Origin: a virus
Lineage: Duplodnaviria; Heunggongvirae; Uroviricota; Caudoviricetes
Strand: one strand, 5' to 3'
Length of the DNA: 64,000 nucleotides
IMG/VR virus record: IMGVR_UViG_3300035696_000002
How positions within the stretch are numbered: position 1 is the first letter of the stretch; the number at the start of each line of letters is the position of its first letter. The translations under genes and the position numbers were made by a program. Positions 61,265 through 64,000 of this stretch are shown piece by piece. The notes beneath the pieces are model-generated. The model did no database searches and was not told where the DNA came from. It was given only the letters and a program-made list of their open reading frames with translations.

Positions 61265-62044
61265 ATGGAGCCAGTAACGCCCTACGCAGTCGGCACTAAG
61301 GTCGTCAACAAGATCACCGGGGTCAAGGGAAAAATTGAATCCTTCGATCCTGTGAAGCTCACCTACGAGGTCGTATACGCCAACAAAGTCGGTCTCCGCC
61401 GCAACCAGCCGCACGCCACAATCGAGCCAATCAAGTCCACAAAGAAAATCCGCCTCGCCTCTTACAACGGTTTCATCGGGAAAGTTTTCCCTTACCTGCA
61501 ATATGAGGGCAACGAAGCCCTCTTCGGTCGCCGCAACTCCCTGTCGTGGGAGAACCACGATTGCGTCCGGGAACTGGCGTGGCTCGTGGGTTGGGTTACC
61601 CTCCGTGGCTTCATGGTGATCTGGACTACCGAACAGCACAAACCCCGCGTGATTGCAGACGCCGCGAGGCAGAACGTGAATCTGGACGGCGTCATGTTCG
61701 TTGGCGAGAAATCTGACTCGACTGCGTATCACTGCAAATTCATGAACCCCGGCTACGCCAAGCTGGATGTCATTCTCGGAAAGTTTTTTGATCCATGGGG
61801 CGGCGGTGGTTCCGGTCTCGAAATCAACAGCCGCAACTTCTACGACATCCTTGCCGATATCGGGCACCCACTACGCGAAGGCGTGATGCCGACTGAGGAT
61901 GACCTGAGGGCGATCCGGTCGCGGGTGGTCTCGGCTTTGGAACAGCAAGCCGGGCTGGCGGTCACCGAAGTGATCCGGTACTACGACAAGGGCGTCGCCG
62001 GGATTCTGCCGGAGGATGCAGTCGGAGTGCCAGAAGAAGAGTAA
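61265..62044 (+). CDS. Hypothetical protein, possibly with an SH3-like N-terminus
   Basis: SD GAGGT and an upstream TATACT box; 259 aa. Confidence 0.7.
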   Translation: MEPVTPYAVGTKVVNKITGVKGKIESFDPVKLTYEVVYANKVGLRRNQPHATIEPIKSTKKIRLASYNGFIGKVFPYLQYEGNEALFGRRNSLSWENHDCVRELAWLVGWVTLRGFMVIWTTEQHKPRVIADAARQNVNLDGVMFVGEKSDSTAYHCKFMNPGYAKLDVILGKFFDPWGGGGSGLEINSRNFYDILADIGHPLREGVMPTEDDLRAIRSRVVSALEQQAGLAVTEVIRYYDKGVAGILPEDAVGVPEEE

Positions 62045-62271
62045 CCCCAAGGGCCGCAACGATTTCCAATCACTGGCCAAAACCCGTTTGGAATCGGTAT
62101 ACTCTAAGTGTTGAGCGTTGCTAACCTTGATCCGCTCGACAGGCTACGGCCTCTAAAACAACATCAACCATCAACCTTTGCTGGCTTACCTGCGAGTCAG
62201 GTAAGTTTAGGCGGTGTAAACCGTACATCAAAACGGGACGAAGCCGCCACTTCATCCCCCATGGAGGAAGC

Positions 62272-62478
62272 ATGACGCTGACACTGGCAAAGGCACGCGA
62301 ACTGAATTTGGATTGCTACTTTTACGGCAGCGAGACACAGCGGACGGAGCATTTGACAACCTTCGCTGAGGTCACTGGCCGGGAGACTTTCGAGTTCGAA
62401 GAGTTCGTCCACGGATTCAGGCTCATCGTCGGAGCAGTTACACCGAGGCCCCGGCCCGTAGTCACCGTGGTTGAATAG
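62272..62478 (+). CDS. Small hypothetical protein within the ncRNA region
   Basis: Strong SD GGAGG 4 nt before the ATG. Confidence 0.5.
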   Translation: MTLTLAKARELNLDCYFYGSETQRTEHLTTFAEVTGRETFEFEEFVHGFRLIVGAVTPRPRPVVTVVE

Positions 62479-62955
62479 TGCTGTTGTACCGTCTGTGCTC
62501 GTGCATTCTGTCTGTGCGTCGGCATCCACATAAATCCGAGCGTCGTGGAACGACAGGCATGGGGCTTCTAAACCGCTGCACCGGGACGCTGGTGCGGGGT
62601 GCACTGAGCACGGACGAGACAGCAGCAATGATTGCTTAGCGGCTTGCTGGAGAGCGGGTTCGTATGTGAGCAGGGTAGGCCACTCTCCACTACACGCGGA
62701 CAAGGCGTGAGCATACGTGCTCCAGCCGCCCGCTAAACAATCAAAGTTTTGTCAGTAGACTCGGCTGCTATAAACGCCATGACCCCAACCGAGGCACGGA
62801 TGGTCACACAAGTGGGCTGTCACTCCGCAAGAGGGTGATGCGTGCCAGAGTTCGGACGGGGAAACAGGTAAAGGGGCGGACTGACCGAGACGTGCCCGTC
62901 CCTGAGGATTCTATGCAAGGAGTGGTAGGGACTCGTTGCAGTGTTGTTGCGATGA

Positions 62956-63086
62956 GCCCCCGTCGTCTAGTGGTTAGGACGCCATGGGCTACAAACGTTG
63001 CTCTGGTTCTAGGCCGGGGCACAGGAATTCTAGGCATCCTGAGTTTGTGGTAAGTGGATACGCGAGTTCGAATCTCGCCGGGGGCA
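62956..63086 (+). tRNA. tRNA-like RNA (Glu/Gln-type frame) with an expanded, branched anticodon arm; CCA not encoded
   Basis: Acceptor GCCCCCG/CGGGGGC+A, D arm GTCT-AGTGGTTA-GGAC, stem CCAT/GTGG, variable loop ATAC, T arm GCGAG-TTCGAAT-CTCGC, and a ~68-nt insert. Confidence 0.75.
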
Positions 63087-63510
63087 ACATACCACGAGGG
63101 AACGAGGCGTTTGAAACCACGCCTACCTTGCGAACAAGCGTGGCCGACTATCCGGGTCGGGGATTGAAAAAGTTCGTCGTCCCGTAGGGACGATGTCCAG
63201 TGAATGTCCCTCCCGGTGGAGAGCGGCTATCAAGGCGTAGCAGAAGCAGAAACGTAAATGGGTCGCGACCATTGAAACTGGCGACGCAGCTACGCTGAGA
63301 GTTTAGCAACACGGTCGGCGGGGATGCACGACACGTCTAATACAGCGTGCCCCAAAGTTTGGTCGAACGGTCGGAGGGGATCGTGCCGGATTGAGCAATT
63401 CCGCCCCAAAGCTTGGTGGGCTATTTTCACCGTGCCGCCAGCAACACGCTGGATTTGCCGTGAACCTCCCATGACGGGACATAGCCCACCAAACAATTTT
63501 CAGTTCGCTG

Positions 63511-63540
63511 TTGACAAAAGTCTGAGAACTACAGTATTCT
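63511..63540 (+). promoter_or_regulatory. Sigma70-like promoter driving the downstream non-coding segment
   Basis: TTGACA-N18-TATTCT. Confidence 0.6.
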
Positions 63541-64000
63541 CTTAATGTAAGCCTGCGATTGACCGCTGCTTGCCCTTAGTGGAGAAACAGCCCAGAGGGC
63601 GAAAGGGTGTGAATAGCCCCGAGCATGTCCCGCAGCCCCCGCTTCCGGTTGAATATTCACTGACGCCGGAAGTCGCGATTGTAGGGGGACAACAATTTTA
63701 GGCCGGGAAAGCAGTATCGGCCAACAAGCGTGATCGGCTATGCCAGCCCTTCCTTCTAAACCTTGACTGCTTATCAAATCTAGGTCTGGCGATTTCTGAT
63801 CCAAAAGCCACGGGGAGTGACGGCACTGGAGTAATGGTGCGGATTCGTGGTTGCAAGCAGCCGAAGGGGCTTCTCATGTAGAGCCTCTGAGATGGGGACG
63901 TTCTGGACTTGCAAGCGGCGTCGCGTAGCAACTGAAACGCGACAGACGAGGCCCCCGGCTCATTCCCTGATTAAGAATGGGGTAGAGTCTCGAAAGAGAA

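Follow-up and report, generated by a model that had tools for sequence, protein, structure and literature searches.

A phage gene for a tRNA-derived RNA with a forked, strand-specific insert in place of the anticodon loop

Chimeric RNAs built on tRNA scaffolds in E. coli are recognised by tRNA-processing enzymes and are protected from nucleases (PMC3753655). In these scaffolds of Ponchon and Dardel the acceptor, D and T arms are kept and a structured insert prolongs the anticodon stem (PMC3753655), which is also the plan of the 131-nt gene described here; the scaffolds were designed in the laboratory, whereas the phage gene is natural, its body is that of a bacterial tRNA-Glu and its insert is forked. 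A second point of comparison is provided by the 'enigmatic' introns in tRNA genes of Lak megaphages (Devoto et al. 2019, PMC6784885), where the anticodon arm of a huge-phage tRNA is likewise interrupted by tens of bases, too few to self-splice. In the Lak cases tRNA type and anticodon can be assigned after removal of the insert, whereas in the present gene no excision restores the anticodon arm and the phage has separate normal tRNA-Glu genes. The YrlA RNA that acts with Ro60 (RF02553) is another case to compare: it does not decode, imitates the acceptor, D and T arms of a tRNA and bears a second functional module. YrlA ends on the anticodon side, has a loop-closed acceptor and works with Ro60, whereas the RNA here ends at its acceptor; Rfam gives no YrlA match in window positions 62000-64000. 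Finally, the tRNA-Lys of phage T5 reportedly counters the tRNA-cleaving defence PARIS, a conflict with host tRNA nucleases in which an altered anticodon region matters and in which the same decoy logic would apply. The T5 tRNA remains a decoder and takes the place of the host tRNA that has been cleaved, whereas the 131-nt RNA almost certainly cannot read codons.

The gene lies in the window analysed here, a stretch of 64,000 nt corresponding to positions 239749-303748 of a single virus record of 463,033 bp (55% G+C). It occupies window positions 62956-63086 on the + strand (genome 302704-302834), with a ribonucleotide reductase gene 2.6 kb upstream and an array of tRNAs reading GNN codons that starts about 1.5 kb downstream. 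Its parts, in window coordinates, are as follows.

62956..62962 (+): 5' strand of the acceptor stem, GCCCCCG, forming 7/7 pairs with 63079-63085 and identical to that of Chloroflexota tRNA-Glu(UUC)
62965..62980 (+): D arm of Glu type, GTCT-AGTGGTT-AGGAC, with G18 G19 and A21 (Rfam tRNA alignment)
62982..62987 (+): anticodon-stem remnant CCAT, which pairs with GTGG at 63054-63057, followed by GG, which faces AA at 63052-63053
62988..62996 (+): 5' strand of a 9-bp extension helix, GCTACAAAC, pairing with 63043-63051 and including 2 G.U pairs
62999..63021 (+): hairpin 1, TGCTCTGG-[TTCTAGG]-CCGGGGCA, an 8-bp stem with the loop TTCTAGG at 63007-63013
63022..63041 (+): hairpin 2, CAGGA-ATTCTAGGCA-TCCTG, a 5-bp stem with the 10-nt loop ATTCTAGGCA and its heptamer at 63028-63034
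63043..63057 (+): GTTTGTGGT, the 3' strand of the extension helix, followed by AA and by the anticodon-stem strand GTGG (from fold and sequence)
63058..63061 (+): 4-nt variable loop ATAC, the short Glu-type form (Rfam alignment), where Chloroflexota tRNA-Glu has AGATC
63062..63078 (+): T arm, GCGAG-TTCGAAT-CTCGC, with one compensated pair change relative to Chloroflexota tRNA-Glu
63079..63086 (+): 3' strand of the acceptor stem, CGGGGGC, and discriminator A, followed by ACA and not CCA

The initial annotation had drawn the three arms, the anticodon stem, the extension helix and both hairpins at just these positions, and each of them is there. The Rfam tRNA model RF00005 matches 62956-63086 end to end with 44.8 bits (E 8e-8), against a cut-off for this model of 29 bits, and the acceptor, D and T arms of the tRNA fold are present together with the elbow bases G18 G19 and TTCGAAT. 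The anticodon arm takes up 70 nt where the model expects 11, and the insert amounts to 68 nt. ARAGORN, which had been proposed as a check, misses the gene in its default form; with introns allowed it makes the implausible call of a tRNA-Leu(GAG), forcing U37 and a variable region of 11 nt onto a body of Glu type. Folding bears out the forked anticodon arm. The minimum-energy fold (-60.7 kcal/mol, z -4.08, with 0/200 shuffles as stable) runs in order through the acceptor, the D arm, CCAU/GUGG, a GG/AA internal loop, the 9-bp helix, a three-way junction and two hairpins, and this structure makes up 20% of the ensemble. Folded alone the insert reaches z -3.5, and the reverse strand of the gene gives only -40.2 kcal/mol with z -1.5. 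This asymmetry between the strands arises because of five G.U pairs and therefore points to structure at the level of RNA and not to a DNA palindrome. In the same fold the GG on the 5' side stands opposite AA as a tandem G.A step below the extension helix, and hairpin 1 is lengthened by two U.G pairs to leave a loop of 3 nt. The heptamer TTCTAGG is thus correctly located in hairpin 1, and the canonical 7-nt loop first assigned to it is only one possible reading. The insert has no paralogues inside the phage genome and no Rfam family match, introns included, at E up to 10, and as a single sequence it does not allow a covariance model. These data support the proposal of a tRNA-derived RNA gene, with a structured insert specific to one strand standing where the anticodon loop would be.

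A pattern made of the acceptor, D arm and T loop, with an anticodon arm of normal length allowed, was run on about 186,000 bacterial species and matched 47 genomes, 46 of them Chloroflexota; all 47 matches are ordinary tRNA-Glu(UUC) genes. Outside the insert the body is identical to Chloroflexota tRNA-Glu(UUC) at 56/61 positions (92%). Its identity to genes of the phage itself is 82% for the closest paralogue, tRNA-Gln(CUG), 75% for tRNA-Glu(CUC) and 48% for tRNA-Glu(UUC), and the suggested Glu/Gln type can be narrowed to Glu. The D arm at 62965-62980 has the U11-A24 and U13-G22 pairs typical of tRNA-Glu, an augmented D helix that the body combines with G1-C72 and the 4-nt variable loop of a Chloroflexota-type tRNA-Glu. 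Relative to Chloroflexota tRNA-Glu, one pair of the T stem is changed on both sides (a double compensatory change), C30 has become U with its pairing to G40 kept as U.G, and the 31-39 pair has become G.A, which adjoins a second G.A and creates the tandem step described above. The tertiary-contact bases seen in the sequence, U8, A14, G18 G19, A21 and the T loop UUCGAAU, are all kept. Judged by its sequence, the body reproduces a tRNA-Glu(UUC) of Chloroflexota type intact; 'Chloroflexota-type' describes the sequence and makes no claim on the host.

An intact body does not make this RNA a decoding tRNA, and it is almost certainly unable to read codons. It departs from the combination of a 5-bp stem, a 7-nt loop, U33, a purine at 37 and the standard elbow distance; the loop at the conventional anticodon site reads GGCUACA, with CTA at positions 34-36 (62989-62991) preceded by G33, as had been noted. 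The bases U34 U35 C36 A37 take part in charging by E. coli GluRS, and this anticodon of a GluRS substrate is not present in the 131-nt gene. We enumerated every single excision between position 26 and the T stem, and none gives at least 4 stem pairs together with U33, a purine at 37 and a variable loop of 4-5 nt. The sole solutions with 5 bp need a 14-nt variable region and present the loop AUCCUGA, and a Glu anticodon loop (UUUC or UCUC) occurs nowhere in the insert. The phage tRNA set comprises 68 genes and a permuted tmRNA by ARAGORN, or 70 tRNA matches by Infernal, and includes a normal tRNA-Glu(CUC) at genome 307997 and a normal tRNA-Glu(UUC) at genome 306456-306533, the latter found by Infernal and absent from the ARAGORN list. 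With both Glu decoders encoded elsewhere, the 131-nt copy is not needed for translation. The idea that it is the missing tRNA-Glu(UUC) of the phage was rejected on finding the gene at 306456-306533.

What the insert presents at its far end is a pair of loops with a sequence that is scarce in the rest of the genome. TTCTAGG occurs 3 times on this strand of the 463 kb against 23 expected, and 2/3 of these copies are inside the 131-nt gene, as are both of the copies of TTCTAGGC in the 463-kb genome. CTAG is depleted nine-fold genome-wide, with 200 seen and 1767 expected. A repeated 8-mer arises in 2% of insert shuffles, and three CTAG within 131 nt have a Poisson chance of 3e-5 for any one such stretch, which over the whole genome comes to about 0.1. 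The twin-loop repeat is more than chance. UCUAGG is quasi-palindromic and the two loops can pair mutually over 6 bp (computed at -4.6 kcal/mol), so that the presence of two identical loops can be explained by structure, with no need for anticodons. UCUAG is also present in the D arm, so that duplication of a D-arm segment is a possible origin of the twin loops. The sequence antisense to the loops, CCTAGAA, is found three times on the + strand, once inside the ribonucleotide reductase ORF, and none of the three copies was seen beside a start codon. Among other short words, GCGC, expected 2688 times, is absent from the 463 kb, and counts of TATA and TTAA are low as well; the absence of GCGC and the depletion of CTAG look like strong restriction-site avoidance.

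The best explanation that we can offer, to which we give about an even chance of being right, is an RNA that does not decode but is carried on a tRNA scaffold, perhaps as a decoy. The 131-nt RNA is probably a tRNA look-alike. Its body would serve as a scaffold handled by tRNA enzymes: RNase P would cut the 5' end, the 3' end would be trimmed and receive CCA from a CCA-adding enzyme of the phage or the host, and the L shape would keep the RNA stable. A CCA-adding enzyme gene is present in the phage. The rigid arm (4 bp, the tandem G.A step, 9 bp), predicted to end in the three-way junction with its two hairpins, would display the loops UUCUAGG(C) as a working surface and not as anticodons, with the loops either pairing mutually over 6 bp or offering two identical sites to a dimeric partner. 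The job of such an RNA may be to occupy a factor that handles bacterial tRNA-Glu, for example a tRNA-directed nuclease or another tRNA-Glu-binding enzyme, while being itself unusable in translation. To occupy a factor of this kind would be the likeliest purpose of the 131-nt RNA, and a decoy would seem its most natural use because laboratory scaffolds of this plan are processed and protected and because phage tRNAs act in conflicts over tRNA-cutting defences.

Other tRNA-shaped genes of this phage and its relatives have non-decoding structures of a simpler kind. Three CCA-ended genes of the phage, at genome 90309-90376, 239197-239272 (-) and 239593-239667 (-), have the anticodon loop replaced by a 4-nt (GAAA, CUCG) or 6-nt loop and are non-decoding, and in the GNN array of a relative L044:8965 joins a Glu-type body to an AUCC tetraloop in place of the anticodon loop. 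These genes resemble the 131-nt gene in that a tRNA body carries a non-decoding structure where the anticodon loop should be; the loop-replaced genes have phage-type bodies and CCA, whereas the 131-nt gene combines a forked domain of 68 nt with a body of Chloroflexota type and encodes no CCA. L047:19450 is a Glu-type piece with a GCAG tetraloop arm whose acceptor strands are unpaired, and L018:17485 is a chimera of a Glu-type 5' half and 3' half in the GNN array of another relative, again with unpaired acceptor strands. Such genes show that both non-decoding mimics, which count for the scaffold reading, and junk tRNA pieces exist in the phage clade. The tRNA complement has further irregularities. 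At genome 94410-94491 (+) Infernal finds a tRNA match missed by ARAGORN in which a CUUCUAA stem-loop (UCU, Arg) comes directly after the acceptor strand, with an unusual stretch of 23 nt ahead of the T arm; it looks like a rearranged tRNA-Arg(UCU). Class I tRNAs for Asn, Gln, Arg-CCU and Thr-UGU and two for Pro, 86-93 nt long (genome 89428, 89864, 93461, 235270, 346044 and 346158), have extra variable-region hairpins, which in the four drawn (Asn, Gln, Arg and Thr) end in small loops such as GAAA or UUAA.

Several observations speak against the scaffold reading. The gene is a singleton: five DNA patterns in IMG/VR and one in JGI metagenomes returned no close homologue and no gene with the same insert, and blastn against cultured phages gave T-arm matches only. 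A search with the ribonucleotide reductase gene brought up 11 related phage contigs that share the GNN tRNA array; the stretch that separates the array from the reductase gene is not conserved among them. The sole analogue downstream of ribonucleotide reductase in these 11 relatives is L015:15003-15127, at the upstream edge of the array in a 455-kb phage contig, where a Gln-like tRNA body (U1-A72, encoded CCA) holds a 56-nt insert. This insert is an unbranched rod with the distal loop AUCGCUC and a fold that is not exceptional (z -1.8). The analogue, from the closest large relative, shares the design, which counts for the scaffold reading, but neither the body type nor the insert sequence, and may be of independent origin. 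According to the initial annotation, unconserved loop sequences together with an RNA that is neither expressed nor processed would mark a decayed pseudo-tRNA; the first half of this is seen in the unrelated insert of the one analogue. A complete 332-kb relative has no tRNA gene of such design.

The immediate surroundings of the gene count against the scaffold reading as well. CCA is encoded in 65/68 phage tRNA genes and is often followed by an A/U-rich spacer, and the 131-nt gene has its discriminator A followed by ACA and no such spacer. A scan found no sigma-70-type promoter or terminator adjoining the gene on the + strand; a terminator on the minus strand lies at 63193-63177. Searches of the phage for genes of RtcB, the splicing endonuclease EndA (PF01974), TROVE/Ro60 and GluRS gave no match. 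The persistence of chimeric tRNA fragments in L018 and L047 also tells against a functional scaffold, as it means that junk tRNA pieces do survive in the clade. For the neighbouring 259-aa protein no relatives were found. Inside the GNN array a 239-aa ORF (L086:4511-5230, genome 304511-305230) matches the class II aminoacyl-tRNA synthetase core PF00587 only weakly (28.5 bits, just below the cut-off) and is too short to hold an anticodon-binding domain. Two non-coding blocks in the vicinity are shared with relatives and are without Rfam match: a structured one of about 158 nt at window 63542-63699, 81% identical to L018:15013-15170, and one of 80 nt at genome 303808-303887, 60 nt past the window end, 96% identical to L010:6340-6419, whose flanking genes are only about 70% identical to those of L010. 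A candidate expanded tRNA-like RNA 197 nt past the window end is unrecognised by the tRNA model.

The main rival to the scaffold reading is a decaying relic, in which a captured bacterial tRNA-Glu gene had its anticodon loop destroyed by insertion or internal duplication and would yield a product, if any, that is inert. The isolation of the gene fits such a history, as do the absence of the Chloroflexota-type body from the five relatives examined, the lack of conservation of the genes of this region, the missing CCA, spacer and adjoining promoter, the tRNA chimeras in the arrays of relatives and the UCUAG of the D arm from which the twin loops could have been duplicated. Decay, however, would not be expected to leave a flawless body with 7/7 acceptor pairs, all tertiary bases in place and a stem change that is compensated, nor an insert whose perfect helix prolongs the anticodon stem and whose fold, on the + strand only, is far stabler than that of shuffles. 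The retention of three CTAG within 131 nt of a CTAG-purged genome, at the low Poisson chance given above, also argues against a relic. We consider the relic unlikely, though a serious contender.

A second alternative is a pre-tRNA with a protein-spliced mini-intron of the Lak kind, which nucleases of the host or phage would cut and a phage RNA ligase would reseal. Splicing by the RNA itself is not at issue, since at 68 nt the insert is too short for a group I intron, whose catalytic core takes about 200 nt or more, and it has no Rfam intron match, in agreement with what had been concluded at the outset. The 15-step helix with hairpin 1 is about the length that RNase III needs, and two or three RNA ligase genes of Rnl2 type are encoded by the phage, both of which points count for this proposal. 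Short inserts in phage tRNA genes have also been published (PMC6784885). They recur in unrelated phage and metagenome contigs, where our pattern scans found many tRNA bodies whose anticodon arm holds an insert of 40-75 nt; the Rfam tRNA model recognises most of those tested, with scores of about 29-53 bits, and none of the inserts shares sequence with the present one. Two neighbouring tRNA genes in L051:401-657 (-), and likewise in L074, differ in their bodies yet share one and the same structured insert of 50 nt where the anticodon arm begins, as if the insert were mobile. Against a mini-intron, the excision survey yields no usable arm, the only 5-bp solutions requiring a 14-nt variable region, and no Glu loop. 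The fold has a 2x2 G.A internal loop and lacks the 3-nt bulges of a bulge-helix-bulge, and EndA and RtcB are missing from the phage. Both Glu decoders are already encoded, and no intron-less allele is seen among the relatives. An intron of this type is improbable.

The scans for inserts turned up two further groups of genes. A low-GC family (L004, L005, L007, L008, L009, L052, L065, L070) has tRNA genes of 110-127 nt, up to three per contig, with the insert motif AAAA-hairpin-UUACAGCAA, also written AAAA-hairpin-(U)UACAGCAA, and in L004 and L065 weak YrlA-like matches lie close to these genes. A family of 65-70% GC in IMG/VR (L089, L090, L092, L093, L095, L098, L099, L101, L102, L104, L105) has Glu-type bodies in which an intact 5-bp anticodon stem encloses about 75 nt, including a T-arm-like hairpin GGGG-TTCGAGT-CCCC; this family has no match in cultured phages.

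Two remaining proposals give the CUA of the loops a direct role. CUAG contains both UAG and CUA, and because of this the twin loops could imitate a codon and an anticodon simultaneously, forming a sponge for the CUA anticodons of the three suppressor tRNAs of the phage or a trap for a host nuclease directed at anticodon loops. We hold this to be very improbable; if true, a non-decoding RNA in the shape of a host tRNA would time or protect stop-codon read-through. The three tRNA(CUA) genes have normal anticodon loops and lie at genome 238747-239065 (-), just before the window start. In this genome TAG is the stop of 91/449 long ORFs (about 20%), and internal fusions number 11 for TAG, 19 for TAA and 10 for TGA. 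Recoding of TAG was rejected, as the standard code already gives an ORF coverage of 87% and TAG read-through is not in excess. The initial proposal of an amber-reading element, as a processed suppressor or as a ligand of the ribosome or a release factor presenting CUA twice, can draw on a loop 1 writable as U32-U33-CUA-G37-G38 on a stem, on the CUA at the conventional 34-36 and on the investment of the phage in amber reading through its three tRNA(CUA) genes, but it is scarcely credible and is not supported as a suppressor, because the loops sit on 8-bp and 5-bp hairpins past a 15-step coaxial helix and a junction, about 25 bp beyond the normal anticodon position, so that two separate excisions would be needed and no single one rescues it, because they have G37 G38 where the real suppressors of the phage have A37 A38 and the conventional site has G33, because TAG is an ordinary stop not read as sense, with internal TAG no commoner than TAA or TGA, because the L015 analogue lacks the heptamer, and because CUAG is a palindrome, so that CUA is present in any self-pairing CUAG loop.

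An important consequence of these comparisons concerns the roles given to tRNA genes in phages. Such genes are usually seen as helpers in codon usage or as spares against tRNA-cutting defences, and the 131-nt gene would represent a third design, in which a bacterial tRNA body is kept, its anticodon is discarded and a compact two-loop domain is carried instead, as in RNA engineering. Even if only a relic, the gene marks gene flow from Chloroflexota-type bacteria into the phage. Together with the tetraloop 'tRNAs' of the clade, it suggests that huge phages maintain a repertoire of non-decoding tRNA mimics. If a partner is found, be it a nuclease, a synthetase or another tRNA-binding protein, the non-decoding RNA on its tRNA scaffold would be a new RNA counter-measure and a natural, transplantable RNA scaffold.
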